Origin: Dehalococcoidia bacterium
GTDB taxonomy: Bacteria > Chloroflexota > Dehalococcoidia > Lucifugimonadales > UBA3495
NCBI GenBank assembly: GCA_027249445.1
Contig: JAPNTN010000049.1
Location: forward strand, 1 to 38,412
DNA length: 38,412 bases
Direction of reading: 5' to 3'
In this document: piece after piece, positions 530 to 37,092 of the stretch
Layout: each line of letters opens with the position of its first letter
Position numbering within the stretch: position 1 is the stretch's first letter
Made by a program: the position numbers and the translations under genes
Notes under the pieces: generated by a model
Told to the model about the DNA's origin: nothing
Databases searched by the model: none
The model's input: only the letters and a program-made list of their open reading frames with translations

Positions 530-604
530 TGGTCGGGGCGGCCAGGATCGAACTGGCGACCTCCTGGTCCCAAACCAGGCGCCCTACCGCTGGGCCACGC
601 CCCG
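530..604 (-). tRNA. tRNA-Pro (anticodon TGG), CCA encoded
   Basis: Hand-folded cloverleaf on the minus strand, 75 nt. Acceptor CGGGGCG/CGCCCCG; D arm GCCC-AGCGGTA-GGGC; anticodon arm CCTGG-TTTGGGA-CCAGG (TGG); variable AGGTC; T arm GCCAG-TTCGATC-CTGGC; discriminator A plus CCA. Confidence 0.93.
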
Positions 605-623
605 ATTGATTACCCCTTCACTA

Positions 624-698
624 TGGTACCCCCGGAGAGGGTCGAACTCTCGTCTCTGGCTCCGGAGGCCAGCACTCTATCCACTGAGCTACAGGGGC
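624..698 (-). tRNA. tRNA-Arg (anticodon CCG), CCA encoded
   Basis: Hand-folded cloverleaf on the minus strand, 75 nt. Acceptor GCCCCTG/CGGGGGT (two G-U pairs, including 1-72); D arm GCTC-AGTGGATA-GAGT; anticodon arm CTGGC-CTCCGGA-GCCAG (CCG, G37); 4-nt variable loop AGAC; T arm GAGAG-TTCGACC-CTCTC; A plus CCA. Confidence 0.88.
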
Positions 699-8959: not shown

Positions 8960-8968
8960 AATTAAGCC

Positions 8969-9607
8969 TTATAAACGATCGGCTGACAGTGGATCTGAAA
9001 CTCCTATCATACTATCTCTAGTTACTAGTGCAGCCAGAGACTCCTGATCCAAGGCTTCCGTTCCCGACGGCCTTCTAGGAATGACCATGTATCGCATATC
9101 TGCAGTACTATCAAGGACCCTTACCTCAACATCATCTGATAGTCGCAGCCCAAATTCTTCCATAACTTCCCTGGGGGAGACTACCACTCTAGATCTGTAC
9201 GCCAGACTCTTATACCAATCAGGAGGTCTCCCAAGTAGCATTCTTGGGTAACACGAACACAGAGTACAGACGACAACATGGTGAATAGAATCCGAATTTT
9301 CAACCACTTTTAAATAAGGCGTTTTGTCTGGAAGCTCGTATCCAATTTCCTTCAAAGCGTCAGATGCATTAGCCAACAGTCTGGTCTTAAACGACTCATC
9401 CGACCAGGCTAAAGCCACTATCTTTGCCCCATCAGCAGGTGACTTGCTGTCCATAGCATTCACCTCACGATCAATTTCCGCAGTCGTCATGACACCTTTT
9501 TCGACTAGTAACGTTTCAATCGCTTTGGCTCTCGAAGCGTAGTAACTTAATTGTACTTCCGTTTCAGGATCATGATTGCCATGATTTGTATGTTGATTAC
9601 TTGCCAT
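8969..9607 (-). CDS. nthA: nitrile hydratase family alpha subunit, cobalt type (equivalent to thiocyanate hydrolase gamma)
   Basis: 212 aa. Metal-binding claw VVVCTLCSCYP at nt 9251-9268 (CTLCSC is the Co type). Also PPDWYKSLAYRSRVV, DSTADMRYMVIPRRPSGTE and LVTRDSMIGV. Confidence 0.9.
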   Translation of the reverse strand: MASNQHTNHGNHDPETEVQLSYYASRAKAIETLLVEKGVMTTAEIDREVNAMDSKSPADGAKIVALAWSDESFKTRLLANASDALKEIGYELPDKTPYLKVVENSDSIHHVVVCTLCSCYPRMLLGRPPDWYKSLAYRSRVVVSPREVMEEFGLRLSDDVEVRVLDSTADMRYMVIPRRPSGTEALDQESLAALVTRDSMIGVSDPLSADRL

Positions 9608-9611
9608 TAAT

Positions 9612-9902
9612 TCAACCTTCGTTAATAGGGTTTAGCCAATGCTCATATATATCAATCAAGAGTTTGTCAGCAATGTTACCTGTATAGTCAGGCCATAAGT
9701 CTATCTGCATGAATTTTACAGTATAAAGAGTCTCAAGTGGATATCCGTCATACCCATAGGCCAACTTTTCAGGGTTCTTAAAACTACCACATACTGACTC
9801 AATGATCCCTGTACTACCTTGTATATATACTGGGGTCCTGTAATGTCCCAATGGAGAATCTATTCGGACCTTCACAATATCCCCAATTTTGAACTTCCCC
9901 AT
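9612..9902 (-). CDS. nitrile hydratase beta subunit, C-terminal half, as a separate polypeptide
   Basis: 96 aa. FKIGDIVKVR...GHYRTPVYIQGSTGIIE...LYTVKF...DIYEHWL matches the SH3-like C-terminal domain of NHase beta. It has its own AAGGA SD and ATG, 20 nt after the stop of the upstream ORF. Confidence 0.82.
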   Translation of the reverse strand: MGKFKIGDIVKVRIDSPLGHYRTPVYIQGSTGIIESVCGSFKNPEKLAYGYDGYPLETLYTVKFMQIDLWPDYTGNIADKLLIDIYEHWLNPINEG

Positions 9903-9922
9903 CTTATTTCCTTTGCAGTTAC

Positions 9923-10216
9923 TTAGCTTGGGGTATCAGACATTTTCTCATCTATCTCTGGGACAGACAAAAGTTCATTTTCTGTTACTAGGACTTCCAA
10001 GGCATGAGTCCATCGCTCGTAATACGTCATATGCTCATATTGATCCTTAGGTATACTTTCAATCACCCTTCGCATCTGATCCGTACTTCTTAATCCTTTA
10101 TTACCTAATACAGCGTGCATTGCGTCAACCCGGAGTTCCCAATCCATCATTTCATGTTCGTCCATATTGATTGGAGTATCATCCGGGAGTCCACCTCTGT
10201 CGTGTACACCTCTCAT
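9923..10216 (-). CDS. nitrile hydratase beta subunit, N-terminal half, as a separate polypeptide
   Basis: 97 aa starting MRGVHDRGG (beta N-terminal M-x-G-x-HD-x-GG). Also contains RRVIESIPKDQYEHMTYYERWTHALEVL, the helical beta core. AGGAG lies upstream. Confidence 0.78.
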   Translation of the reverse strand: MRGVHDRGGLPDDTPINMDEHEMMDWELRVDAMHAVLGNKGLRSTDQMRRVIESIPKDQYEHMTYYERWTHALEVLVTENELLSVPEIDEKMSDTPS

Positions 10217-10288
10217 ACTGGCTCCTATTGGGCATATTGGACCTTAAAATGCCACTAAAATAGCTATTGTTAGTAAACATTATACTGA

Positions 10289-11563
10289 TCATTCTGAATT
10301 TGGTAAGGGTCGCCTCATAATGCCAAATGTCACTGCACCAAGGGCAAATATGATCGTAAATATCCACAGTGGCAACGTGTAATTACCATGTATATCAAAC
10401 CACCATCCGACAAAGAATGGGGCCAATAATACTCCTGGAAAGTTAGCTAATTGTACGAATCCTCTTAATCTGGTAAATGTTTTCCTACCAAAATACTCGC
10501 CTAGGGTAGCCCAATTTGTAGGCGCGCTCCCATCCGCCACTGAAAACAGAAATACAAACACCAGCACCACCCATATACCCTGAAACCCCATAGCCAACAA
10601 CGCGAACGACCCGGTTCCAAAAATAGACGCCATCATTAAAACCCAGTTCTTCGGAAATCTATCACCGAGCCAACCAATAACTATATACATCAGCATAGTC
10701 ATGAATAGTAGTAGCGAGAAAGCCAACACCGCAATTTGCTGGCTGACTCCAACACTCACGAATATCGGGATTATATGGAGCATTATCGCCGCCTTAGCTA
10801 TTAAACGAAACGCCGTCGCCAAAACTAAAATCCAATATGTGGGCGTCAACATAGCAGTTTTCAGCTCATATTCCACAGGTGGAATCCATACACTACCGTC
10901 ATGGGAATCTGAAGTATCCGGTATACCATCAGAAGTTTCTGGATCGCCATCCATAGTAAGCCCCATACTCTCCGGAGTATCCTTAATGAAAAACGCGAGC
11001 GGAAGCACGACACACAATATCACCAATCCGATGATAGTAAATGTTGAACTCAAGCCTAGGACTGCGATGGACACAGCTACCAATGGCACCAACACAACCG
11101 GTACTATTGAATCAAGCGCGTGAAAGACAGACATAGCCATAGATTTCTGTCTATAAAACCAGTTATTAAGAAGAGTAGCCATTGGATAGGAGAAACCAAT
11201 GTTACTACCCACGGTGATTATCCCTAAATAGACAATAGCAAATGCCCAAATATTGGGAGAATATCCTAATATGAGAAATCCACCACCGCTCATAGCGGCC
11301 CCAACAAACACCAATGCCCTGGGGCCATACTTGTCAACTAACCATCCAGCCAATGGGCCCGTAGGACCGTTCTCGGCTCTTGCCAGAGAAAATATCAAGG
11401 ATACCTCTGCTCTCGTAGCTCCGAAGAACTGCTCGACAGGCAAAATGAACACAGGAAAACCCTTGTTGACAGCTGTCTTGTTTATGGAGGTTACAAACGC
11501 GCCTAAACCTACCATCCACCAGCCAAAAAACATATTTGACAGCTTAAATTTACTAATTAACAA
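10289..11563 (-). CDS. MFS transporter (oxalate/formate antiporter-like subfamily)
   Basis: 424 aa, about 12 hydrophobic helices. Loop motif GWLVDKYGPRALV between TM2 and TM3, and an acidic central loop. Paralogous to the adjacent MFS gene. Confidence 0.85.
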   Translation of the reverse strand: MLISKFKLSNMFFGWWMVGLGAFVTSINKTAVNKGFPVFILPVEQFFGATRAEVSLIFSLARAENGPTGPLAGWLVDKYGPRALVFVGAAMSGGGFLILGYSPNIWAFAIVYLGIITVGSNIGFSYPMATLLNNWFYRQKSMAMSVFHALDSIVPVVLVPLVAVSIAVLGLSSTFTIIGLVILCVVLPLAFFIKDTPESMGLTMDGDPETSDGIPDTSDSHDGSVWIPPVEYELKTAMLTPTYWILVLATAFRLIAKAAIMLHIIPIFVSVGVSQQIAVLAFSLLLFMTMLMYIVIGWLGDRFPKNWVLMMASIFGTGSFALLAMGFQGIWVVLVFVFLFSVADGSAPTNWATLGEYFGRKTFTRLRGFVQLANFPGVLLAPFFVGWWFDIHGNYTLPLWIFTIIFALGAVTFGIMRRPLPNSE

Positions 11564-11647
11564 TACACTGGTCCTGTAGATAGTTGGTAGTCATATTTAC
11601 AACACATGATATTAGACTATTCTAGCCGTATATCTTCTTCAGAAAGA

Positions 11648-12868
11648 TCATAATACAGGAGAGTTTCCTAGTACTGGGTGCTTGGGTGGAGTTACAGTCA
11701 CCACCACTAATGCCCCTATCGCATAAAGGCTTATCAACAACCACCAAGCAGATGTGTAAGTACCCATACCATCATGCATATAGCCTACTATAGGAGCTCC
11801 TAGTCCAGCACTAATCAGATTAACAGGCATGACTATCCCACGTATAGCGCCCAGGAATTCCCTTCCAAAATACGAAGCAAATATGTACGAATGCACTACC
11901 ATTCCCGCACCAACAGATAAACCAAACGTTATTGTAGATGCAAACAAAAATACTTCATCAAATCCACATATCATAAGGAATATAGCCACAGTAAATCCCA
12001 CAAAAGAAATTCCTGCAATATATCTGATCGGGAATCTATCTGCTAACCATCCAGAGATTAGAGCCATTGTAGCAGCACCAGCTGCATCAGCTGAAAAAGC
12101 ATAGGACACTATATGCGCATCGAAGCCTCGCTCTATCCAATATGGAATTCTATGAACACTTGCCCCGCCTTGAGCCATACCTGTGACAGCAAAGACAAAC
12201 ATTAACTTCCATAGTGCTCCCGTATGAAGGGCCTCTTTAACAGTCCACTGAATCTCAACAAGGGGATTTTCCTTCCCCGTATCAGAATGATCAGGCGATA
12301 CTTTGTCGCCGTCCACGACCAGGCCCATATCTTCTGGTTGGCGCCTTAGGAAAATAAGTGATATCGGCGCAGCAATGAAAAAGAATATTAGAGCTAATGC
12401 AGACCAGGCACCTCGCCATCCAAGATTACTTATAAGAAACTGAGTAAATGGCAAAAATACAATTCCCCCAATTCCTAACCCCGTTGTAGCGATAGCTAGA
12501 GCCTTACCTCGCTTCCTGAGGAACCATTTTGCTACAGGTACCGATGTAACAATGCCATTGGGAGTCGCTAGACCTGATACACCCACCACACCAAATAAAA
12601 CTATGATGTGCCATGGAGATGTAGCTCTCGATACAAGAAAAAGACATAATCCGATAGCCAAGGCCGAAACTGGTATGAAAATGCGCGGCCCATACCGATC
12701 TATCAATCTTCCAACTACAAAGCTCGATAGACTAGCAGACACACGTCTAGTTGTTTGTGTCCATCCAAACTGGCTTCTAGACATGTTCAATGCATTAGAC
12801 ATTGGCAGAACAAAGAGACCAAAATTAAGGTTTCCAGTAGCCATAGTTGAGAAATTTACAGCCCACAT
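11648..12868 (-). CDS. MFS transporter, paralog of the neighbouring gene; true N-terminus probably extends to about 12919-12922
   Basis: 406 aa from the first ATG, with motif GRLIDRYGPRIF. The in-frame upstream codons encode IIKSKFDGIFYGWVIVAT, which aligns with the paralog N-terminus MLISKFKLSNMFFGWWMV. No ATG/GTG/TTG is in frame there (see findings). Confidence 0.8.
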   Translation of the reverse strand: MWAVNFSTMATGNLNFGLFVLPMSNALNMSRSQFGWTQTTRRVSASLSSFVVGRLIDRYGPRIFIPVSALAIGLCLFLVSRATSPWHIIVLFGVVGVSGLATPNGIVTSVPVAKWFLRKRGKALAIATTGLGIGGIVFLPFTQFLISNLGWRGAWSALALIFFFIAAPISLIFLRRQPEDMGLVVDGDKVSPDHSDTGKENPLVEIQWTVKEALHTGALWKLMFVFAVTGMAQGGASVHRIPYWIERGFDAHIVSYAFSADAAGAATMALISGWLADRFPIRYIAGISFVGFTVAIFLMICGFDEVFLFASTITFGLSVGAGMVVHSYIFASYFGREFLGAIRGIVMPVNLISAGLGAPIVGYMHDGMGTYTSAWWLLISLYAIGALVVVTVTPPKHPVLGNSPVL

Positions 12869-12935
12869 CGTGGCAACAATTACCCAACCGTAAAATATTC
12901 CATCAAATTTAGATTTTATGATCCATCTCCTACGA

Positions 12936-12974
12936 CCATATATAAGGCGGGTCTACGACCCGCCTTATATATGG
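12936..12974 (-). terminator. perfect 18-bp stem / 3-nt loop hairpin between the LLM oxidoreductase and MFS genes
   Basis: CCATATATAAGGCGGGTC-TAC-GACCCGCCTTATATATGG, 17 nt downstream of the stop at 12991. No clear U-tract follows, so it could be a terminator or an RNA-stability element. Confidence 0.5.
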
Positions 12975-12990
12975 TTAGACCTTCACGAAT

Positions 12991-14043
12991 CTAATCTTGA
13001 AACTGAGGCATAACCTCTTTTGCAAAGAGTTCTAATGACTTTTTAACCTTAGTGCTCTCTATACCGCCGTAGTTGACGAACAATATAATCTTTCTTACCC
13101 CTAAATCACTCAATAACTGAATCTTTTCGATCAGTTCGTCAGGTGTTCCAAATAGAACGACTTTCTCACACATCTCTTCGTAATCTACCGAAGAAGTTGC
13201 CGAGAATCTCCTACGATACTCACTGAAATTTTCAGGTAAGAGCTCGCCTCTACGTTCCGGAGGAGCTCCCACTTCTGCACTAGTCTCTTTAAACCACATG
13301 AAAGGAACTTCAGAATCTTCTCGCACTTGCTTTTCGTCCTTGTGCGTATACATTGCCCTAGCGACTGTCACCTGATAAGGATCAAATTTCGACCCTGCTT
13401 CTCCTACAGCCGAACCAAAATAATTGATTTGTTCACCTACTTTTGCAAAAGACTCTCCTTGTCCGATCAGAAGATTCCAACCGTTCTGTGCTATACGGTC
13501 CATACTCGCCTGACTGCTAGCTGCCACCCATAATGGAGGATGGGGGTTCTGAATAGGTTTAGGATGTACCGTCATGTCATTAAAAGTCCAAAATTCACCG
13601 GCATGGTCGAAGGCAATTTTGCTTGTCCAGCCTTTTATCAGCACATCCAAAGCTTCCTTAAACCGCCTATCAGCCTCATCCATAGGAATATTCAATCTGT
13701 TGAATTCTCCCCATTGGTATCCTCTACCTACTCCTAAATCAAGTCTGCCGTTACTAAGTAGATCCACCGTAGCAGTTTGCTCAGCTACATCAATAGGGCT
13801 ATGAAATGGTAAAACTGTTACAGCAGTACCCAATCTGATATCACTAGTCTTAGCAGCTAGATAAGACAAAACTGAGAATGTAGCCGACACAATACCATGC
13901 CTAGAAAAGTGATGTTCCGTGAACCATACTGATTCGTATCCTAGTTGCTCTGCCCACAAAACTTGATCCAATGCCTCGTCATAATACTCTTGCTGCCTAG
14001 TTGGATCTGGCAATTGAACCGAATGGAATAACCCAAACTTCAT
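12991..14043 (-). CDS. LLM-class (luciferase-like) flavin-dependent oxidoreductase
   Basis: 350 aa. MKFGLF...LGYESVWFTEHHF N-terminus, GRLDLGVGRGY and PPLWVAA motifs of bacterial luciferase-like monooxygenases. GGAAGGG SD. Confidence 0.88.
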   Translation of the reverse strand: MKFGLFHSVQLPDPTRQQEYYDEALDQVLWAEQLGYESVWFTEHHFSRHGIVSATFSVLSYLAAKTSDIRLGTAVTVLPFHSPIDVAEQTATVDLLSNGRLDLGVGRGYQWGEFNRLNIPMDEADRRFKEALDVLIKGWTSKIAFDHAGEFWTFNDMTVHPKPIQNPHPPLWVAASSQASMDRIAQNGWNLLIGQGESFAKVGEQINYFGSAVGEAGSKFDPYQVTVARAMYTHKDEKQVREDSEVPFMWFKETSAEVGAPPERRGELLPENFSEYRRRFSATSSVDYEEMCEKVVLFGTPDELIEKIQLLSDLGVRKIILFVNYGGIESTKVKKSLELFAKEVMPQFQD

Positions 14044-28620: not shown

Positions 28621-29754
28621 CTAGTCGTCAATATGCTCTAACACAGTTGTTTTGTGATCATGAACATCACCATACATCAGCTGCTGTACTTTGGCTCGTC
28701 TTGTATAAAGCTGTAGATTATGCTCCTTTGTGAAACCTATCGCGCCGTGACACTGATGAGCCGTAGAACAAACCCTGGCATATGCACCGGTTATCCAAAC
28801 CTTTGCCATCGATACTTCCCTAGCACATTCCAAGTTCTCTGATATACGCCAAGCAGCATGGTATGCCATATGACGGCTACCTTCCACATCTGATGCCATA
28901 TTAGCGCAGTGATGTTGTATAGCTTGAAAACTTCCTATTGGCCTCCCGAATTGGGTTCTCTGCTTTGCGTATTCGACAGTCATATCTAATACTGCTTCGG
29001 CACCACCAAGCATTTCTATGCAATTAGCGGAGACGGCACGCTGCAACATTTTTTCCACTATCGGCCAACCTAGGTCCACCTCTCCAATAACATTACTATT
29101 GGGAACTGTGACATTATTGAAATGCATTTCACAATGTCGCTCCCCACCAATACTATTCAATAAACTGACAGTTATGCCTTCATTATCCATAGGCACAACA
29201 AATATGGTAATTCCAGAGTTCGCATCACCAGATTCTGTTGTTCGTGTAACTACTAGAACAGACTGAGCCGCATCTGCATCTGGAACAAACAGCTTGGTTC
29301 CGTTTAAGACATAGCTATCACCTTGACTCGAGGCCGTCATATGAATACCCCAAGGCTGGTAAGAACCTTCTTCCTCCAGCATAGCTACCGTTAGAATATG
29401 ACTCCCATCACATACACCGGGAATAACTTCTTGCTTCTGCAGATCGGAACCAGCATCAAGAACTGTAAGGCCTCCCAACACAACGCTAGAAAAAAACGGA
29501 GTCGGCAGCAAGCTTCTACCCATCTCTTCCAGAAGAACCGCAAGATCTGCAAAGTTAGCTCCTGTGCCGCCAAATTCTTCAGGAAACACCAGACCAGTCC
29601 ATCCAAGACTTACAACTTGCTTCCATAAAGTCTCAGAATAACCTTTATTACTCTCTTCTAATTCCCGGACTAATGTGAGCGGGCACTCCTGGCTCAGGAA
29701 TTCTCTGGCACTATTCTTCAGCATTTGCTGTATTTCGGTTAAACCTAGATCCAT
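28621..29754 (-). CDS. acyl-CoA dehydrogenase family protein
   Basis: 377 aa. FPEEFGG, LNGTKLFV, FGRPIGSFQAIQH and GAIGFT motifs. GGAGG SD. Confidence 0.88.
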   Translation of the reverse strand: MDLGLTEIQQMLKNSAREFLSQECPLTLVRELEESNKGYSETLWKQVVSLGWTGLVFPEEFGGTGANFADLAVLLEEMGRSLLPTPFFSSVVLGGLTVLDAGSDLQKQEVIPGVCDGSHILTVAMLEEEGSYQPWGIHMTASSQGDSYVLNGTKLFVPDADAAQSVLVVTRTTESGDANSGITIFVVPMDNEGITVSLLNSIGGERHCEMHFNNVTVPNSNVIGEVDLGWPIVEKMLQRAVSANCIEMLGGAEAVLDMTVEYAKQRTQFGRPIGSFQAIQHHCANMASDVEGSRHMAYHAAWRISENLECAREVSMAKVWITGAYARVCSTAHQCHGAIGFTKEHNLQLYTRRAKVQQLMYGDVHDHKTTVLEHIDD

Positions 29755-29918
29755 CCATCCTCCATTTTCTGCATTAAACGAGAGCGAACGTAGTATATCT
29801 TATCGGATCATCGCTCTCAACAGATCCTTCATCACTACTCCCATTATTCTAGATCATTCAAAAAATCAAACGCCCCAACTACTATTAAGATGTTAAATAT
29901 TTGCACGCCTGTTTTATG

Positions 29919-29932
29919 TAGAATATATTCTA
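29919..29932. promoter_or_regulatory. perfect 14-bp palindrome TAGAATATATTCTA upstream of the B12-XRE regulator gene
   Basis: Lies in the 339-bp divergent AT-rich intergenic region. Same half-site family and N2 spacing as TAGAACAAGTTCTA at 31456-31469. It also reads as a -10-like TAGAAT on both strands. Confidence 0.45.
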
Positions 29933-30093
29933 TATATTGCCCAGTCATCAATCACGCCATTCGTGACTATTTCAAGCACAAAACAAACCGCACACTTCTT
30001 GCGTTTATAAAATATTTGTGTACAATATGGATAACATTGACGATGAACAAACACATCAAATACAGCTATCTATAGCACTGGAGGGACTCGTAT

Positions 30094-30972
30094 ATGAGTA
30101 CAGACGATTTAGTAACAACTAAACTGAGTGATCGTTACCTAGACGCTCTAATCCGGAGAGATCCCGACACCACGATATCTGTTATAGAAGATGCTATACG
30201 CCAAGGGCTGAGCCCAGTCAGTATACTGGTTTCAATCGTTGGCAAATCCCAGATTCGAGTCGGTGAAATGTGGCACACCGGTGAGATAAACATAGCGCAG
30301 GAGCATCTTGCAACCCAGATGACACTAGACGTTATGGACCAAATGAGACAGCGCTACCACGCTACCACGAAATGGGGAATCAAGGCAGTTGTAACATGCG
30401 TAGAAGGTAATTTCCATTACGTGGGATCCCGAATGATCGCAGACCTTTTACTAGTAGACGGATGGGACGTTGAATTCCTAGGAGCAGACACACCAACTCA
30501 CGATTTAGTTGAGTTCGTACGCCAGGGCCACCCCGAACTTGTCGCCTTATCCGTTTCTATGAAAGAAGACCTTAGTACAGCAGAGCAAATAATCACGCAA
30601 TTGAGAAGACTGCCCGATTCACCCAGAATATTACTAGGAGGATACGGCGTTACCGATACCGATCAAGTTGAGGGACTTGGACCGGACGGATTTGCCATCG
30701 ACGCATACAGTGCAATCCAGGAGGCTCGCCGCCTTGGAGGACTCTCAAAGGATCCTTTAAGTCTAAATGAATACTTAATAGTGATGGGCTCCAGAGTACA
30801 GGATTTGAGAAAAGGAAGAAGTTGGAATCAAGAACAATTAGCCCAAGCCTCTTCATTGGACAGAACCTACATAAGTGCCGTCGAGAACGGGAAACAGAAC
30901 CTGACGATCGGGGTAGTCTTAAAACTTGCCGAGGCCTTAGAAGTACCCATCGGACAGCTCCTTTCAGACTAA
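30094..30972 (+). CDS. CarH-like cobalamin-binding photoreceptor module fused to a C-terminal XRE-family HTH (putative light-responsive transcriptional regulator)
   Basis: 292 aa with GGAGGG SD. W60-x9-E70-H71 (WHTGEINIAQEH, nt 30271-30306). B12 Rossmann domain with EGNFHYVG (His108, nt 30415-30417), VALSVSM and ILLGG. C-terminal Cro/C1 HTH QEQLAQASSLDRTYISAVENGKQNLT (about nt 30763-30966). Confidence 0.8.
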   Translation: MSTDDLVTTKLSDRYLDALIRRDPDTTISVIEDAIRQGLSPVSILVSIVGKSQIRVGEMWHTGEINIAQEHLATQMTLDVMDQMRQRYHATTKWGIKAVVTCVEGNFHYVGSRMIADLLLVDGWDVEFLGADTPTHDLVEFVRQGHPELVALSVSMKEDLSTAEQIITQLRRLPDSPRILLGGYGVTDTDQVEGLGPDGFAIDAYSAIQEARRLGGLSKDPLSLNEYLIVMGSRVQDLRKGRSWNQEQLAQASSLDRTYISAVENGKQNLTIGVVLKLAEALEVPIGQLLSD

Positions 30973-30992
30973 CTCCATTCCTTTTGCAACTT

Positions 30993-31030
30993 CACAGAGA
31001 GGATAATTCTTATGGAATGTCCTCTCTGTG
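30993..31030. terminator. 11-bp inverted repeat between convergent genes (possible bidirectional terminator)
   Basis: CACAGAGAGGA-N16-TCCTCTCTGTG, with an inner ATTC/GAAT pairing. It lies between the stops at 30972 (+) and 31038 (-). No strong U-tract. Confidence 0.45.
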
Positions 31031-31037
31031 AATCACC

Positions 31038-31232
31038 TTACGCAGCTTTCCTACGAGGCCTACGGCGACGAACCTGCTCAGGTATAAATACGTTCTCATC
31101 GATTTCCTGAGGCTCAGATACTGTCCCAGCGAAATAACGACCGCATTGAACACACGTTACAAACGGACCAAAACTATCCCTGCTCTCATATAGATCTCCC
31201 TTACATTTCTGACACGACTTAAACCAGAACAC
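31038..31232 (-). CDS. small zinc-ribbon protein with Arg-rich C-terminal tail
   Basis: 64 aa, GTG start with GAGGTGA SD. CQKC-x16-CVQC zinc ribbon. Tail RRRRPRRKAA. Confidence 0.6.
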   Translation of the reverse strand: MFWFKSCQKCKGDLYESRDSFGPFVTCVQCGRYFAGTVSEPQEIDENVFIPEQVRRRRPRRKAA

Positions 31233-31380
31233 TTCTCACCTCTCTTCAGCAGGTCTGTATATTTTGGATTCACCCGCTAAATCTATTTCGGACTTGCCTT
31301 ATCTCTACACCTACACAGATCATCTGTTTTTAATTTAATGTCTAACAAATCCTACGTTTCAACCAATTTGTACGATATAG

Positions 31381-31410
31381 TTGACAAACAAGTCCTTAGA
31401 TGTCTAGAAT
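31381..31410 (+). promoter_or_regulatory. near-consensus sigma-70-type promoter (TTGACA-18 nt-TAGAAT) facing the DUF378...photolyase genes
   Basis: TTGACA at 31381-31386 and TAGAAT at 31405-31410. The next downstream gene starts at 31586. Confidence 0.5.
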
Positions 31411-31423
31411 AATACACATAACG

Positions 31424-31469
31424 TAGAACACTGTCAACATTTAAGTTAATTAATGTAGAACAAGTTCTA
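31424..31469. promoter_or_regulatory. operator-like sites: TAGAAC (31424-31429) and palindrome TAGAACAAGTTCTA (31456-31469)
   Basis: Located just downstream of the putative -10. Same half-site as the 25.6-kb cluster. TAGAAC is followed by ACTGTCAA (31430-31437), an octamer also present at 25674-25681 next to GTTCTA. Confidence 0.5.
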
Positions 31470-31585
31470 TAAAAACTAATAAAGAACTGTAATCAGTGAA
31501 AGGAGATATTTATAAACACCAGGTGTTCCACAATTAACGACACAAGGTTGTATAACTTAATCTACATAAATGAAAGGACATAATT

Positions 31586-31783
31586 ATGACAATGGTGCAA
31601 AACATAGCAATTATTCTCGCAGCCGTAGGGGCGCTCAATTGGGGTTTGGTGGGCTTGTTTAAATTTGACTTGGTGGCCCTCATTGCGGGAGGCAAATCAT
31701 TTGGAGAAGTAAATATTCTATCTAGGATCATCTATCTGCTAGTAGCAGTATCGGGCGTTGTAGCAGTAACAACCTTAGCTTGA
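31586..31783 (+). CDS. DUF378-family small membrane protein
   Basis: 65 aa. AAVGALNWGLVGLFKFDLVA is the characteristic DUF378 motif. Two TM helices. AAAGGA SD. Confidence 0.75.
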   Translation: MTMVQNIAIILAAVGALNWGLVGLFKFDLVALIAGGKSFGEVNILSRIIYLLVAVSGVVAVTTLA

Positions 31784-31786
31784 TCC

Positions 31787-31807
31787 AAGTCATACCCAGT
31801 ATGACTT
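31787..31807 (+). terminator. 9-bp stem / 3-nt loop hairpin after the DUF378 gene (weak terminator or attenuator)
   Basis: AAGTCATAC-CCA-GTATGACTT followed by TATAG. It starts 4 nt after the stop codon. Confidence 0.3.
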
Positions 31808-31839
31808 TATAGCAACTAAATCAAAGGAGCGGTAATTAC

Positions 31840-32079
31840 ATGGACATAAGAGAGATAAATACATTAATCATAAAAACTCGCACTTCAATGAGTGACCTTA
31901 TAAATAAATGGGAAAGGTTTATGGTCTCTCGAAAAGCACCTCCTCGCAGAGTTCTAGACCCGTTAAACGTATTGAGTCCAAGTTTGCCTGCTGTAATTGC
32001 ACGCTCCACCAGAAGAATAAACGACCCTAGCTTAACGTTGGCGGAAGCTGAAATTCTGGGAAGGATAAACCTATCATGA
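31840..32079 (+). CDS. hypothetical protein (79 aa), no recognisable family
   Basis: AAAGGAG SD 8 nt upstream of the ATG. Basic, Pro/Arg-rich centre (SRKAPPRRVLDP). Co-oriented within the putative operon. Confidence 0.55.
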   Translation: MDIREINTLIIKTRTSMSDLINKWERFMVSRKAPPRRVLDPLNVLSPSLPAVIARSTRRINDPSLTLAEAEILGRINLS

Positions 32080-32132
32080 ATCTACTAGACCAAGAACAAA
32101 ACCAAGAATTAAACAACAATAAGGAGAAAAAA

Positions 32133-32333
32133 ATGACAGACAACAACATGGAAATTGGCACATGGACACAATTAGCTGAATCGCTTTACGAATTCCTTAA
32201 TCGCAGAGGAACCACTATCGAATACACCTTTGCTGATATGGAAGTTATGGTACCTAAATCTACCGGCGCAGATGCTCCTCAGGCACGTTGGAATTTGAAT
32301 GGGAGTGTAAGACTCCGCACCTGGGAGTCGTAA
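32133..32333 (+). CDS. hypothetical small protein (66 aa), possibly amphi-Trp-domain-like
   Basis: ATG at 32133 has AAGGAG 7 nt upstream. The ORF track starts at 32076, overlapping the previous stop as ATGA. Trp near both ends (GTWTQLAESLYEFL ... VRLRTWES) and a beta-rich centre. The family call is from memory and tentative. Confidence 0.5.
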   Translation: MTDNNMEIGTWTQLAESLYEFLNRRGTTIEYTFADMEVMVPKSTGADAPQARWNLNGSVRLRTWES

Positions 32334-32338
32334 ACATA

Positions 32339-32710
32339 GTGATAGATGTTAAAAATGAACGTTTTAATGTGACTGGAACCGTGCGAGTAGAAATAGATGA
32401 AATGACCAGCAACATTACCGGAACAGGAAACGTCATAGACATAGAACTGTCACTAGTAGACAAAATTTTGACCCATTGGGGTAGGAAACTACCCCAAAAG
32501 TCAAAAAATCTTTCTGATGCCAGTGAAGTGCTTAAACGCACTGGATTGACTGTCAGGGTTCTCAACAATAACAAGCCAATAGTGATCGTAGGAGAACAAG
32601 CTAAACCTGGATTGTTAAATAAAATATTTAAATCAAGAAACATTCAATGGAAACCAAATTTGGCTTTGATCAAATTTGCCCTGAAACATAAGAAGCAAAA
32701 GCAGTTTTAA
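32339..32710 (+). CDS. hypothetical protein (123 aa), beta-rich N-terminal half, Lys-rich C-terminus
   Basis: In-frame GTG at 32339, 5 nt after the previous stop, with GGGAG about 11 nt upstream. The TTG at 32288 in the ORF track would overlap the previous gene by 46 nt. No family recognised. Confidence 0.5.
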   Translation: MIDVKNERFNVTGTVRVEIDEMTSNITGTGNVIDIELSLVDKILTHWGRKLPQKSKNLSDASEVLKRTGLTVRVLNNNKPIVIVGEQAKPGLLNKIFKSRNIQWKPNLALIKFALKHKKQKQF

Positions 32711-32733
32711 TCACAATTATCGGGAGTATAAAA

Positions 32734-33918
32734 ATGAAATGGACTATTCTAGACGCCGACAAAACAGTATTGGATCCTTCTGGAGTCGATGCCTTTATTG
32801 ATCGGATGGATAAAGAACTACGAGCAGGAGGTCCACCGCTTGAGGGCTTCAAGTCTCTCTATTCCAGTCAAGAGATGCTTCAAATCACACGTGAAATAGA
32901 AAATGAAATAACGAAAGTGCCTGATTCCCAATCAACTCTATATGTCGGTTTTCAAACAGTGGATAAATTCCTAAACGAGACTGAGAGATATACGTACATG
33001 AGCACGTTGGGAATTCCGGTAGTTGGTTTTGGTCAAGGTAACGTGCCTGACCAGAACAACGTTCCCGCAGAACAATGGGTATCATTACCAACTGATTTAT
33101 TAGCTTTTGAAAACCAGTGGTACTTAATATCGGCATCACCAAACCCCATAATATTTATAGGTTGGGAAACATCTAGTCCTGAGCTTTTCGGGCTAGGCGG
33201 GATCTCTACAGAAGGAAAAGAATTCCGTGGATTTGTCTCAAATGACGAGAGAATAATTGATGCCGCGATAAATTATCTCGAGCGAGTTAGGAAACAGAAT
33301 GGTCCTACAGCTTCCCTGCCCCTAATGCAGCTATCCGAGGAAATACCTTTTCCGATTAGTCGCATCATGATGGTGACTGACGATAATCAAAATGAACAAA
33401 TTGACTCAATGCGTAAAGAGATAAGTTCGTTCGCAGCAGAAAATGAAGCTTACGTTATGTTATATGACATTTCAGCAGCATCATATTTAGTGAATCCATA
33501 TCCGTCAGGAGAAGTAGAAAAAACTTCCACTAAAGTCTTACATACTCAAGATCTAGGTTTAATGGGGAGACAGTATCTTGTTGAGCAGCTGGACCATCTT
33601 AATAATAATGAACTATGTGCCGGAGTAATATTAGCGACTGAGCACGGGTTCAAACATCTAGCGGAATGGGCTGAAAGCGAAAACGCGGACCTGATTATGA
33701 TTCCGCAGAGCTTGGTCAACCCCGGACTAATTGACCGGATAAAGGGCTATACTCTTCGAAAGTTGCTTGAAGCCACAACTATTCCCATCATTGTGTATAA
33801 GGATTCGACATCGTCATGGATGCGAACACGCAAAGTGTTTAAATCTAATGCTGATATGGATCATCAACTAAATGTATCTGATTACCCAACACCAAAAGCG
33901 GTTAGCCCACTAGCATGA
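32734..33918 (+). CDS. DICT sensory domain protein with C-terminal universal-stress-protein (USP)-like domain
   Basis: 394 aa with GGGAG SD. The DICT pattern has three segments: LQITREIENEI...LYVGFQTVDKFLNETERYTYMSTLGIPVVGFG; QWYLISASPNPIIFIGWE; FRGFVSNDERIIDAAINYLE. The C-terminal half runs RIMMVTDD...ADLIMIPQS...LLEATTIPIIVY, like a USP fold lacking the ATP-binding Gly motif. Confidence 0.7.
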   Translation: MKWTILDADKTVLDPSGVDAFIDRMDKELRAGGPPLEGFKSLYSSQEMLQITREIENEITKVPDSQSTLYVGFQTVDKFLNETERYTYMSTLGIPVVGFGQGNVPDQNNVPAEQWVSLPTDLLAFENQWYLISASPNPIIFIGWETSSPELFGLGGISTEGKEFRGFVSNDERIIDAAINYLERVRKQNGPTASLPLMQLSEEIPFPISRIMMVTDDNQNEQIDSMRKEISSFAAENEAYVMLYDISAASYLVNPYPSGEVEKTSTKVLHTQDLGLMGRQYLVEQLDHLNNNELCAGVILATEHGFKHLAEWAESENADLIMIPQSLVNPGLIDRIKGYTLRKLLEATTIPIIVYKDSTSSWMRTRKVFKSNADMDHQLNVSDYPTPKAVSPLA

Positions 33919-33950
33919 AATATTGTAATTCAGTGTGGGAGATAGATTAA

Positions 33951-35426
33951 ATGCAACCGCAACCAGTAATAGTATGGTTTAGGAACGATCTGCGCTTGGA
34001 AGGCAATCTAGCTCTAAGCGCAGCTCTAGCCTCTCAAAAACCTGTTATCCCAGTATTTATATGGAACGACAAGTCAAGTGATTGTACTTTTAACGGCCCT
34101 CATTCTGAACGATGGCTTGGAGTTTCCTTGCGACATTTGTCAGATTCATTAAATCACCTGGGTTCTCGTCTAATTATCAGGACAGGATATGCCCCTAAAG
34201 AGCTTCGCGACCTGGCCTCGGAAACACACGCTGATCATGTCTATTTTAACGAAAGATACGAACCCTCTGAAATACAAACACAGAGTTTGGTCGAAGAAGC
34301 TCTAAGGCCACAGAATATCGTATTGAAAGCATTCAACTCTAATTATTTATTTGATCCAAGGACTATATATAAAGCTAACAATCATCCTTATAAAAAGTTC
34401 GGCGCATTTTGGAAACATTGTTTAACGCTACAAGAACCAAACCCACTGCCTCTGCCACTGAGGTCCGAACAATTTTCGAGTCCTATGCTGTGGCCTAATA
34501 CAGTCCAACTCACAGAAATGAACGAAGGTTCAAGTTTTAGGGAAGTATCATGTATAAAACCAATGTGGACCCCCGGGGAGGCATCCTCCAATAGAAAACT
34601 TAAAGAATTTCTCCTAACTTCATACGAATATTACTCCGAAAATAGAGAGCGTTCAGATATTACTGGAACGTCGATGCTATCGCCCCACTTAAGCTTCGGA
34701 GAAATAGGACCGACTCAGATACTCCAAGAACTAGACCAACAAAAGCTGAAGGCAACAGCTTCAGTAACTTTACATGAAGACAAATTCATTACAGAACTAG
34801 GCTGGAGAGAGTTCGCTAACTACATCATTACGCATTTTCCCGCATCTAATAGCGAACCAAGCAATACAGTTCTCGATCATTTCATCTGGGACGATAATAA
34901 ATACCACTTAACTGCTTGGCAATCAGGGGAGACGGGTTACCCCATAATCGACGCAGCAATGAGACAGCTTAAAAGCACTGGCTGGATGAATAATAGGCTT
35001 CGCATGGTCGTGGCATCTTTCTTAATCAAGAATTTACTTATACCATGGCAGAAGGGGGCAGAGTGGTTCTCTTACTTATTGGTAGATGCCAACGAGGCAA
35101 GTAATAATTTAGGATGGAAATGGATAGCAGGGTGCGGGACCGACTCATCACCCTATTTTAGGATCTTTAATCCACTGACACAATCTCAAAAAACCGACCA
35201 TGATGGATCATTTATCCATCAATGGATACCTGAATTATCTCAATTAGCTGAGCCCTGGATTCACCATCCATGGTTAGCACCCATAGATGTATTACAAAGA
35301 GCGCAGATCAGTTTAGATGTAGATTATCCAAGGCCTATTGTTGATTACAAAACATCCCGCATTCGTAGTTTAGCTGCATATAAGCAAGCTAAACTACTTT
35401 ACGATCTGGAGAGAAAACACAATTGA
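33951..35426 (+). CDS. phrB: deoxyribodipyrimidine photo-lyase (class I CPD photolyase / cryptochrome-photolyase family)
   Basis: 491 aa. VWFRNDLRL N-terminus, LSPHLSFGEI, GWREFANYI, TGYPIIDAAMRQLKSTGWMNNRLRMVVASFL, GWKWIAGCGTDSSPYFRIFNP. Confidence 0.93.
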   Translation: MQPQPVIVWFRNDLRLEGNLALSAALASQKPVIPVFIWNDKSSDCTFNGPHSERWLGVSLRHLSDSLNHLGSRLIIRTGYAPKELRDLASETHADHVYFNERYEPSEIQTQSLVEEALRPQNIVLKAFNSNYLFDPRTIYKANNHPYKKFGAFWKHCLTLQEPNPLPLPLRSEQFSSPMLWPNTVQLTEMNEGSSFREVSCIKPMWTPGEASSNRKLKEFLLTSYEYYSENRERSDITGTSMLSPHLSFGEIGPTQILQELDQQKLKATASVTLHEDKFITELGWREFANYIITHFPASNSEPSNTVLDHFIWDDNKYHLTAWQSGETGYPIIDAAMRQLKSTGWMNNRLRMVVASFLIKNLLIPWQKGAEWFSYLLVDANEASNNLGWKWIAGCGTDSSPYFRIFNPLTQSQKTDHDGSFIHQWIPELSQLAEPWIHHPWLAPIDVLQRAQISLDVDYPRPIVDYKTSRIRSLAAYKQAKLLYDLERKHN

Positions 35427-35622
35427 TATCTCACCACTTATTCAAATTCTTAGCTCTTGCCATAATCGATGCACTGAACATCCTAATCAGAAAAAATAAA
35501 CGTATACACTATAGTCCAGATTAACTGGCTTAACGAATTCATTTATTTGCATTTCTTCCAATAATGAAAAAGGAACAAGTACTGCATTTTTACTCAAGTA
35601 AGGAGTTGTCTTAAATCTCATA

Positions 35623-37092
35623 ATGTCTAATACCAGCATAACCAGAAATCACCGGATATTAGTAACAGGAGCAACGGGCTACATTGGCGGCAGATTAGTC
35701 CCAATGTTGGAAAAAATGGGGTATAGCGTTCGGTGTTTTGCGAGAAATTCAGATTCCCTTGCATCAAAAGTATCGCAAAACACCGAAATCATATCGGGGG
35801 ATATGCTAAGTTCCCAATCGATTGAACATGCTATGAATGGAATTGATACAGCATTTTATCTAGTCCACTCGATGGGGTCAGCTAAATCCTTTATGGATCT
35901 AGAAACAGAATGTGCTAGGAATTTTGCCTATGCTGCTAAATCTGCTGGGATCAGACGAATAATCTATCTTGGTGGCCTTGGCGAATCAACTAAGAAGTTA
36001 TCGCCGCACCTACTGAGCAGGCAGGAAGTAGGGTCGATATTAAGAGAATCAGAGGTCCCCGTTATTGAATTCAGAGCATCCGTCATTGTTGGATCAGGCA
36101 GCTTATCTTTCGAGTTAGTCCGCAGCCTAGTAGAACGTTTGCCAGTAATGATAACTCCCAGATGGGTCTCAACCCCATCGCAACCAATATCAATAGACGA
36201 CGTACTCAAATATCTAATAGAAAGCATCGAATTGCCGAAATACGAAGATATAATCGTAGAAATTGGAGGTGCAGAAATAATGTCCTACGGGCAAATCATG
36301 AAAGAGTACGCCCGACAGAGAGGACTAAAACGCCTCATGTTAGCAGTACCTGTCCTGACTCCTAGACTGTCCAGTCTGTGGCTGGGACTCGTCACTCCCG
36401 TTTATGCTCGAATAGGGCGCAAACTAATCGATAGCATGAGATATCCCAGTGTAGTTAATAGCACCACAGCACAACATTATTTCAACCTTATACCAAGTGG
36501 TGTTACTGATGCCATTAGTAAAGCACTAGAAGATGAAGATCGAGACTTTGCCGAAACGCGATGGTCTGACGCCCAATCTTCTTCAGGTCCGATCAAACAT
36601 TGGGGAGGAGTAAGGTTTGGACCAAGACTACTCGATATGCGAAGGATAAGTGTCTCTGTGGGACAGCAAGAGGCATTTATACCAATACAACGTATTGGCG
36701 GTCGACAAGGATGGTACTACGGAAATTGGTTGTGGCAGATACGTGGATTCCTAGACCTATTATTTGGAGGCGTTGGTATTCGTAGAGGTCGTAAACACCC
36801 TGAAACCATTACTGTGGGTGACACTATAGATTGGTGGCGGGTAGAGGCGTACGAACCATTCCAACGACTTCTACTGATTGCCGAGATGAAAGTCCCGGGA
36901 CGTGCATGGTTAGAATTCCAAGTAAGTCAGAAGGAAAATGAGACCATACTAACCCAAACCGCAATCTTTGATCCCGTAGGAGTAGGAGGATTGTTGTATT
37001 GGTACGCACTGTACCCGCTTCATAACTTAGTTTTCTCTGGCATGATAAACAATATCGGCCGGTACATCCAACTGCATAAAGAGGACTTATGA
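35623..37092 (+). CDS. NAD(P)H-binding SDR-like domain fused to a DUF2867 domain
   Basis: 489 aa. ILVTGATGYIGGRLV Rossmann start. The C-terminal ~150 aa (WRVEAYEPFQRLLLIAEMKVPGRAWLEFQV) are typical of DUF2867. Confidence 0.78.
   Translation: MSNTSITRNHRILVTGATGYIGGRLVPMLEKMGYSVRCFARNSDSLASKVSQNTEIISGDMLSSQSIEHAMNGIDTAFYLVHSMGSAKSFMDLETECARNFAYAAKSAGIRRIIYLGGLGESTKKLSPHLLSRQEVGSILRESEVPVIEFRASVIVGSGSLSFELVRSLVERLPVMITPRWVSTPSQPISIDDVLKYLIESIELPKYEDIIVEIGGAEIMSYGQIMKEYARQRGLKRLMLAVPVLTPRLSSLWLGLVTPVYARIGRKLIDSMRYPSVVNSTTAQHYFNLIPSGVTDAISKALEDEDRDFAETRWSDAQSSSGPIKHWGGVRFGPRLLDMRRISVSVGQQEAFIPIQRIGGRQGWYYGNWLWQIRGFLDLLFGGVGIRRGRKHPETITVGDTIDWWRVEAYEPFQRLLLIAEMKVPGRAWLEFQVSQKENETILTQTAIFDPVGVGGLLYWYALYPLHNLVFSGMINNIGRYIQLHKEDL

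Follow-up and report, generated by a model that had tools for sequence, protein, structure and literature searches.

Bacteria of the SAR202 radiation (Dehalococcoidia) are abundant in the ocean. Here, we analyze a stretch of 38,412 nucleotides (nt) from a Dehalococcoidia bacterium (GenBank assembly GCA_027249445.1, contig JAPNTN010000049.1, positions 1 to 38,412), henceforth called the window, in which the gene of a presumed cobalamin-dependent regulator, here named B12-XRE, lies ahead of a block of co-oriented genes that includes a photolyase. We suggest, with moderate confidence, that a marine SAR202 bacterium here carries a photoprotection operon that is derepressed by light, and that the operon is run by a CarH-like adenosylcobalamin (AdoCbl) photoreceptor with a C-terminal helix-turn-helix (HTH) of the XRE type. 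Relatives of the window are cited by L-numbers, and unless stated otherwise the ratios of nonsynonymous to synonymous substitution (dN/dS) and the conservation of sites refer to a comparison of the window with L005, at which distance synonymous sites are near saturation (dS ~1). In L001 (PBPE01000040.1, isolate RS371), a Dehalococcoidia metagenome-assembled genome of the SAR202 radiation, the block's protein with a DICT and a USP-like domain (DICT/USP) is 98% identical to that of the window.

A preliminary description, made from the letters of this DNA alone, had placed six co-oriented open reading frames (ORFs) behind a strong promoter with an operator, and had put the regulator and a divergent zinc-ribbon (Zn-ribbon) gene immediately upstream. 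All of these elements were recovered (table 1). The gaps between the six ORFs, when re-measured, are 56, 53, 5, 23 and 32 nt, and a Shine-Dalgarno (SD) sequence (AAGGA, AGGAG or GGGAG) lies 6-11 nt ahead of each of the six starts. The promoter ahead of the block matches the sigma-70 consensus at 11 of 12 positions and is accompanied by a palindrome that is a candidate operator. The shorter starts that had been preferred for the 66- and 123-amino-acid (aa) genes are also the better choice, to judge from conservation in L005 and from the lengths of the homologues.

Table 1. Genes, promoters and candidate regulatory sites of the B12-XRE locus (positions in the window)
Feature	Position	Strand	Basis or remark
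Weak regulator promoter TTTGCA-18-TATATT	29900-29929		ahead of the regulator gene
Candidate autoregulatory operator, perfect 14-bp palindrome TAGAATATATTCTA	29919-29932	.	overlaps the -10 of the weak promoter
B12-XRE regulator, 292 aa	30094-30972	+	Pfam B12-binding_2 + B12-binding + HTH_3
Cys4 Zn-ribbon protein, 64 aa, basic tail ending in -KAA	31038-31232	-	ORF
Block promoter TTGACA-18-TAGAAT	31381-31410	+	11/12 sigma-70
Zn-ribbon promoter TTGACA-17-TATTAT	31437-31409	-	11/12 sigma-70
Half-site CGTAGAACA	31422-31430		inside the back-to-back promoter region
Candidate operator, perfect 14-bp palindrome TAGAACAAGTTCTA	31456-31469	.	~+40 to +53 from the inferred block start
DUF378 small membrane protein, 65 aa	31586-31783	+	Pfam PF04070
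p79, 79 aa	31840-32079	+	ORF
p66, 66 aa	32133-32333	+	ORF, conserved family
p123, 123 aa	32339-32710	+	ORF, GTG start
DICT + USP-like protein, 394 aa	32734-33918	+	Pfam
CPD photolyase/cryptochrome family protein (phr), class-I-type, 491 aa	33951-35426	+	Pfam
NmrA-like atypical short-chain dehydrogenase/reductase (SDR) fused to DUF2867, 489 aa	35623-37092	+	Pfam
Classical SDR, FabG-like, 248 aa	37089-37835	+	start overlaps the NmrA/DUF2867 stop (ATGA)

B12-XRE is composed of a four-helix bundle and a Rossmann domain, which together form a CarH-type AdoCbl-binding module, followed by a C-terminal XRE/Cro-type HTH (residues 231-290). The Wx9EH motif is present as WHTGEINIAQEH at residues 60-71 (W60, E70, H71), and the residue after the Trp, H61, is the equivalent of His132 in the CarH of Thermus thermophilus (TtCarH). 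The B12 motif, NFHYVG-x41-SVS-x26-GG at residues 106-183, has exact spacings and contains the lower-axial His (the His177 equivalent); it shows two substitutions against D/ExHx2G/P-x41-SxT/V-x22-27-GG, N for D/E and S for T/V, and homologues carry D or E, and T, at these two positions. The signature residues are invariant in seven homologues (37-93% identity) and align with those of TtCarH, to which the regulator is 31% identical across ~200 residues. Its dN/dS is 0.037. In the PDB the nearest sequence matches are the B12 domains of photocobilins (E 3e-21), and CarH comes next (E 3e-11). By the published criterion (PMC9304148), the photoreceptor CarH is told apart from the B12-independent CarA by an intact Wx9EH combined with the B12 motif. 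To judge from its sequence, B12-XRE carries every signature that is used to recognize CarH photoreceptors and would be expected to bind AdoCbl. It lacks one defining feature of CarH/LitR, the MerR DNA-binding domain: Pfam finds no such domain in it, and in the alignment the MerR part of TtCarH is without a counterpart.

The CarH/LitR classes I-V that have been described are all of the MerR type with an N-terminal HTH (PMC9758184), and full-text literature searches brought up no description of a CarH/B12-binding module joined to an XRE domain. The relatives of the regulator nonetheless amount to at least 423 stretches in marine, freshwater and soil metagenomes, and the 80 metagenome loci that we retained mostly match it near full length, the C-terminal HTH included.

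Two sites with 11 of 12 matches to sigma-70, the only such sites in 8.7 kb, are both located in the 353-nt region between the Zn-ribbon and DUF378 genes, where they stand back-to-back with an AT-rich centre in common. In L005 the hexamers of both promoters and the intervening core are unchanged while the flanks diverge; the same face-to-face layout of promoters is found in L133. The palindrome just beyond this pair is conserved in L005 as TCGAACAAGTTCTA. The palindrome at the regulator's own promoter has the same half-site, and the two are located solely in the promoter regions that flank the regulator. In L005 the autoregulatory palindrome reads TCGAATATATTCGA, a symmetric change that affects both halves and keeps the palindrome, which is the behaviour expected for a dyad under a symmetric protein. 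Perfect matches to TAGAAY-N2-RTTCTA are limited to these two in the window and, beyond it, to the near-identical L001, in a search of the window and 45 genome loci (879 kb). There are, in addition, ~5 half-sites of the TGTAGA- or TGTCTA-type in the intergenic region, and in each of the two promoters the -10 and the spacer are covered by such sites. The shorter dyad GAAY-N2-RTTC was counted seven times in the sequence that flanks the regulator genes of 36 clusters (80% identity), versus 1.1+/-1.1 times in shuffled sequence, and 0 of 500 shuffles reach seven; this enrichment near regulators lends moderate support to a role as operator, the pattern having been picked post hoc from the window. Dyad matches inside the regulator genes proved to be coding sequence of a conserved LVEFV peptide and were discarded. 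The enrichment of 7-mers in the upstream regions was swamped by AT-rich composition and uninformative, and an ACAAGT core that several promoters have in common by eye was set aside as post hoc and weak.

The leader of the block was examined for control by RNA structure. An Rfam scan of positions 29700-36000 at E<=1 returned no match, and the predicted fold of the 170-nt 5' untranslated region (UTR) is no more stable than those of shuffled sequences (z -0.44). A 27-nt inverted repeat (31446-31472 and 31548-31574) has undergone a change in one arm in L005 without compensation in the other; because the fold is no more stable than chance and this change is uncompensated, we read the repeat as protein-binding half-sites and not as a hairpin. 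A candidate upstream ORF in the 5' UTR was rejected, for want of a canonical start and because L005 does not preserve its frame. Two further observations concern the same leader: a 22-nt block with an SD-like AAGGAG is duplicated 74 nt apart (31492-31513 and 31566-31587), and the 40 nt that lead up to DUF378 (31546-31585) agree with L005 at 38 of 40 positions despite the saturation of synonymous sites.

The end of the block at 35426, as originally drawn, probably comes too early. Two more genes on the same strand, encoding the NmrA/DUF2867 fusion and the classical SDR, reach 37835; a predicted terminator is absent between them and the photolyase, and NmrA/DUF2867 is the regulator's commonest partner elsewhere. 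For these reasons the transcription unit probably extends through both genes and comprises eight genes instead of six. Inside the block no internal promoter or terminator rises above chance, and there is a single 11/12 block promoter. The SDR is conserved at this place in L001, L005 and L051-L053 only. The gap of 196 nt between phr and the NmrA/DUF2867 gene is poorly conserved in L005 except for the SD; a GAACAAGT-like sequence within it was dropped from consideration, as it is not conserved there.

How regularly these genes keep company was examined from two anchors. DICT/USP served as the first, with 45 species-level genome loci, each from Dehalococcoidia, SAR202 or Chloroflexota, and with tblastn and iterated profile searches; for the regulator, the 80 metagenome loci were combined with those from genomes, and grouping at 80% identity left 35 non-redundant lineages. 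Within reach of the regulator the commonest gene is NmrA/DUF2867 (9 of the 35 lineages), followed by DICT/USP and the Zn-ribbon (8 each), the photolyase (7), DUF378 (6, adjacent to B12-XRE or DICT/USP), RudS, which consists of TudS and DUF1722 (5), p123 (5), p66 (4), an epimerase-DUF1731-SRPBCC gene (4) and ribA/ribB (3). Both RudS and photolyase have been documented in LitR operons that light induces (PMC11417400, PMC9758184). The unassigned families adjoin the regulator about as often as these known light-regulon genes do.

The arrangements themselves are varied. B12-XRE adjoins the block in L002, L004, L024, L040, L055, L057, L081, L085, L088 and others. In six loci (L004, L049, L085, L088, L089 and L101) the regulator is followed by the Zn-ribbon and DICT/USP genes, and in L002 it comes last, after DUF378, DICT/USP, Zn-ribbon and NmrA/DUF2867. 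It is divergent from DUF378 and DICT/USP in L024, and in L040 and L081 from a series p66, p123, DICT/USP, phr and NmrA/DUF2867. Among marine SAR202 (L036-L044) the Zn-ribbon, p66, p123, DICT/USP, in some cases phr, and NmrA/DUF2867 are co-oriented in this order; L046 has p66, p123, Dps, DICT/USP, Zn-ribbon, phr and NmrA/DUF2867. Soil contigs L098 and L102 combine p66-p123 with the regulator and NmrA/DUF2867 and are without DICT/USP. That the linkage survives such reshuffling of order and orientation argues for functional coupling over inherited synteny. The expectation that the gene order would recur beyond this genome was borne out in part: the p66/p123 pair, DICT/USP, the Zn-ribbon and NmrA/DUF2867 recur, DUF378 and phr do so less often, but p79 is confined to its own lineage.

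Some of these loci have features of their own. The Dps gene of L046 (879-1373), of the ferritin/Dps family, lies between p123 and DICT/USP and fits an oxidative-stress flavour. In a deep-marine lineage (L058-L078) the order is Zn-ribbon, NmrA/DUF2867, B12-XRE, RudS, epimerase-DUF1731-SRPBCC and ribB/ribA (examples are L062 1333-2316, L058 3217-4626 and L058 5170-6515), and a dyad, GGGAATAAGTTCC, is found between the regulator and RudS. Freshwater contigs (L090-L110) have B12-XRE beside Methyltransf_9 (DUF1698, CmoB-like), ApaG and a DnaJ-domain protein, the SAR202 partners being absent; to go by these annotations, the cargo of the regulator family seems to differ between habitats. In L049 cobalamin biosynthesis genes for a TP_methylase, CobN and a Mg-chelatase-like ATPase (8194-13688) lie 4-9 kb downstream of the series regulator, Zn-ribbon and DICT/USP; this proximity may be due to chance, or it may point to a link with B12 supply.

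Further genes of light-sensor type occur near the regulator family. A 131-aa LOV-type PAS protein is encoded after the Zn-ribbon in L133 (430-825, minus strand), L055 (2665-3060, minus strand) and L056 (4925-5314, minus strand), in the orientation opposite to that of the DUF378/p66-p123-DICT/USP block. LOV domains make up all of its best matches in the PDB (E 2e-20), and it is without the photoactive Cys, having GKSPSLLQG or GKSPTMLQG versus GRNCRFLQG. In L084 (2180-11947) five genes within 10 kb encode a MerR-type CarH, a LOV(Cys)-SpoIIE/PP2C phosphatase, B12-XRE, NmrA/DUF2867 and a photolyase. The full set of CarH signatures, together with the photolyase, RudS and LOV-type genes that recur beside the regulator family, has strengthened the probable link to light.

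The other proteins of the locus deserve individual comment. The Zn-ribbon protein (dN/dS 0.033; family pattern CPxCxGDL...D.YG...C.QCG) recurs in the company of the regulator, DICT/USP and NmrA/DUF2867, and its ORF often overlaps the start of the last. In an alignment of L002-L101 these proteins very often end in -AA (RRKAA, KKAA, SKAA, KLALAA, LDIAA), a terminus whose resemblance to the ssrA-type tag for degradation by ClpXP hints at a putatively unstable regulatory protein. DUF378 (PF04070) is matched over its full length with 69.1 bits against a cutoff of 25 (dN/dS 0.037). The DICT domain (PF10069) of the window protein is marginal, at 23.8 bits with a cutoff of 23.8, and the Usp domain (PF00582) has 16.2 bits versus a cutoff of 24. 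Among 29 family members DICT is matched in 27 at E<0.01 (best 1e-7) and Usp in 17 (best 2e-6), and by these profile scores the domain call appears to hold at the level of the family. A regular-expression search of the USP-like half for the ATP motif G-x2-G-x9-G-(S/T) found none; the stretch at that place is QSLVNPGLIDRIKGYT. The DICT/USP protein (dN/dS 0.04) has 60 homologues, the named ones all from Dehalococcoidia, SAR202 or Chloroflexota, and a PDB profile search with it gave nothing significant. A tblastn of DICT/USP against plasmids, aimed at MerR-DICT fusions or class III LitR, gave no match. According to a statement quoted in PMC8612252, DICT is predicted to have a role in light responses; an experimental function for DICT was not found in the literature searched. 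The photolyase (dN/dS 0.16) matches DNA_photolyase (E 1e-41) and FAD_binding_7 (E 1e-80) in Pfam. In NCBIfam it has 343 bits against an equivalog cutoff of 506 for PRK10674 and 352 against 604 for the plant-type cryptochrome model; it is a member of the family, to which it is assigned as a whole rather than to one substrate class. NmrA (65.9 bits) and DUF2867 (107 bits) are found by Pfam in a single chain (dN/dS 0.07).

The remainder of the window is typical of SAR202 metabolism, with luciferase-like monooxygenases, MFS transporters and acyl-CoA dehydrogenases. Adjacent tRNA-Pro(TGG) and tRNA-Arg(CCG) genes (530-698, minus strand) are ordinary. A nitrile-hydratase alpha-like protein (8969-9607, minus strand) has a partial match to a Frankia-type RiPP precursor model and adjoins a gene (7151-8959, minus strand) whose 602-aa product has a DCC1-like thiol-disulfide oxidoreductase domain; in L055 (6701-8054) nitrile hydratase alpha and beta genes are also found near the block.

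From this anatomy we propose the following mechanism. In the dark, the AdoCbl-bound regulator would form an oligomer on GAAY-N2-RTTC dyads, including TAGAACAAGTTCTA (~+40 relative to the block promoter), on TGTAGAAC-like half-sites that cover the -10 and spacer regions of the paired promoters, and on TAGAATATATTCTA over the regulator's own -10. So bound, it would keep the block, the divergent Zn-ribbon gene and its own gene from being transcribed. In the light, photolysis of the Co-C bond would cause the oligomer to fall apart and permit transcription of a cargo that comprises DUF378, p79, p66, p123, DICT/USP and the photolyase and that probably continues into NmrA/DUF2867 and the SDR. As a working guess, DICT/USP, p66-p123 and the Zn-ribbon may form a cytoplasmic sensing or regulatory complex beside the redox and repair enzymes (NmrA/DUF2867, SDR and photolyase).

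A number of points weigh against a light-derepressed operon. All that concerns light in this account is inferred. The window supplied the operator pattern before other loci were examined with it; ahead of DICT/USP genes that have no regulator nearby, GAAY-N2-RTTC shows no enrichment (1 versus 0.56 expected), and the main palindrome sits downstream of the block promoter, at ~+40, rather than over it. A relaxed dyad (N2-4) upstream of these regulator-less genes, found five times versus 1.7 (29 of 1000 shuffles), was too weak to use. The 196-nt gap ahead of NmrA/DUF2867 could hold a separate promoter, and p79 is poorly conserved. Only seven of the 35 lineages have phr within reach of the regulator, and ~10, many of them on short contigs, are without any recognizable partner. 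DICT/USP stands without any of these partners in 31 of its 45 genome loci, mostly those of large-genome Dehalococcoidia, and it belongs to the module only facultatively. In L036, a SAR202 single-cell genome that bears the label 505 m, the Zn-ribbon, p66, p123, DICT/USP and NmrA genes are kept with neither phr nor the regulator nearby, and therefore the module is not tied to the photic zone.

The last two of these observations also speak for a different view of the locus, in which the block is a general stress cluster (USP, Dps-like and redox proteins) under ordinary sigma-70 expression and the proximity of B12-XRE is inherited synteny. The annotated neighbours of the partnerless DICT/USP genes are unrelated (permease, cupin, ketopantoate reductase, MutS2), the block is without a nearby regulator or phr not only in L036 but also in L037-L039, L043 and L044, and the ferritin/Dps gene of L046 fits a general oxidative stress. 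We regard this view as unlikely, however: the association persists across reshuffled order, orientation and sets of partners, among regulators that are only 35-57% identical and with soil contigs included, and the palindromes are common to the promoters of the regulator and of the block.

Still less likely is that the regulator senses the availability or form of cobalamin in the dark, so that the block would be a B12-status or metabolic regulon with the photolyase as a passenger. B12-binding domains are also used outside photoreception (NCBIfam gives corrinoid proteins similar scores), and both L049 and L085 have the trio of regulator, Zn-ribbon and DICT/USP 4-9 kb from cobalamin genes (TP_methylase, CobN, chelatase). 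But the Wx9EH and the next His, which have been tied to AdoCbl photochemistry in CarH (PMC9304148), are invariant here, and the recurrent neighbours are photolyase and RudS, which deal with light damage, and LOV-type sensor genes, and not pairs of B12-dependent and -independent isozymes or B12 transporters.

The small proteins p79, p66 and p123, none of which has a match in Pfam or NCBIfam, differ in standing. The p66 family comprises 17 clusters among 5.8 billion proteins and is found in 20 loci of divergent lineages, the soil contigs L098 and L102 included. Upstream of the p66 start 19 codons are poorly conserved in L005, and the remainder is ~100% identical. The p123 family, of which only two clusters emerge at E<1e-10 from 1.84 billion representatives, was extended by iterated searching to 23 loci; its homologues have 109-125 aa (the public gene call has 123) and keep a conserved pattern at 14-28% identity. 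The two genes always form an adjacent pair, p66 first, with a gap of -17 to +29 nt. The AlphaFold2 models, of one helix and two strands for p66 (pLDDT 68.5), and for p123 (pLDDT 55), are weak because the alignments are shallow. A search by fold, proposed in the preliminary description, left p66 and p123 without a match (Foldseek against the PDB, best E 0.08; nothing significant in PDB profile searches), and a paralogy of the two was given up as not detectable (hhalign probability 1.6%). p79 occurs only in the window, L001, L005 and L051-L053, and in other lineages the DUF378 or Zn-ribbon gene directly precedes p66. It is 54% identical to its L005 counterpart (its neighbours ~90%), from which it differs by two in-frame indels (multiples of three); its termini are conserved, and an AGGAG lies 10 nt upstream.

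Purifying selection, implied when the small ORFs were first taken for functional parts, is strong for p66 (dN/dS 0.05), moderate for p123 (0.26) and weak for p79 (0.39). The least probable of the alternatives, that the small ORFs and chiefly p79 are spurious or decaying remnants, can appeal to this weak constraint, to the low identity, single lineage and missing domain match of p79 and to the low confidence of the p66 and p123 models, but it is opposed by the constraint on p66 and its constant sequel p123, by the persistence of p123 at such low identity with its pattern conserved, and, for p79, by a frame kept through indels, conserved termini, an SD and an ATGA junction with the next ORF. From these comparisons p79 is probably a young, lineage-specific and fast-evolving gene, real but dispensable. 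The original proposal, that the unassigned genes are candidates for parts of a light system, is partly supported: four of them are real conserved parts of a module linked to B12-XRE, but p79 is not.

To our knowledge, light sensing through B12 has been described in little else than CarH/LitR proteins of the MerR type and a few fusions to enzymes. The class I CarH/LitR proteins (the CarH of T. thermophilus, Myxococcus xanthus and Bacillus megaterium) have the same two-domain light module and motifs as B12-XRE; the candidate operators of B12-XRE may likewise overlap promoters, the regulator's own included, and a photolyase is among its neighbours. They differ in that the MerR HTH of CarH is N-terminal and the XRE/Cro HTH of B12-XRE is C-terminal, in that CarH operators are tandem 11-bp direct repeats (nnnnTnnACAn) whereas the candidate B12-XRE operators are 14-bp palindromes (GAAY-N2-RTTC), and in that the cargo in the window, unlike that of CarH, is without carotenoid genes. 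The photocobilins, which bind B12 and biliverdin, provide the solved structures closest in sequence to the B12 module (PDB 8J2W, 8J2X, 8J2Y, 8JBS) and show that CarH-like B12 domains have been reused with other output domains (PMC10979010). Their globin-like bilin-binding domain is absent from B12-XRE, however, whose output is a DNA-binding HTH.

In the flavour of its cargo the B12-XRE family comes close to the light-induced LitR regulons of Pseudomonas (phrB, RudS/DUF1722, SDR, folE and short-LOV partners), with which its neighbourhoods share photolyase, RudS, short-chain dehydrogenases, cofactor biosynthesis and short LOV-type proteins. Pseudomonas LitR is nonetheless a different class of regulator, and the descriptions consulted name neither p66-p123 nor the Zn-ribbon, DICT/USP, NmrA/DUF2867 or DUF378 as members of its regulons. 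In most of the DICT proteins that have been described the fusion partner is a GGDEF, EAL, HD-GYP, STAS or histidine-kinase output, whereas the DICT domain of the window is fused to a USP-like domain which itself, in contrast to the ATP-binding (UspFG/MJ0577) subclass, is without the nucleotide-binding motif.

A much bolder interpretation can be offered only tentatively, since we consider it doubtful as a whole: that B12-XRE represents a new and widespread class of AdoCbl photoreceptor-repressors and, at the same time, that p66-p123, the Zn-ribbon, DICT/USP and NmrA/DUF2867 constitute a new light-signalling or photoprotection module, in which DICT/USP and the small proteins would act as a second-tier sensor or antirepressor complex and the SDR-DUF2867 enzyme would handle a photo-oxidized lipid or cofactor. 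If a light module is truly joined to an XRE domain here, the design space of B12 photoreceptors would be widened, and optogenetics would gain a repressor with a different operator logic, that of short palindromes. Five uncharacterized families (p66, p123, Zn-ribbon, DICT/USP and NmrA/DUF2867), as well as DUF378, gain a concrete functional context. The first isolates of SAR202 were inhibited or killed by light, for reasons that are unexplained (PMC10444878), and the locus described here is a possible genetic entry to the light response, or light sensitivity, of these bacteria.

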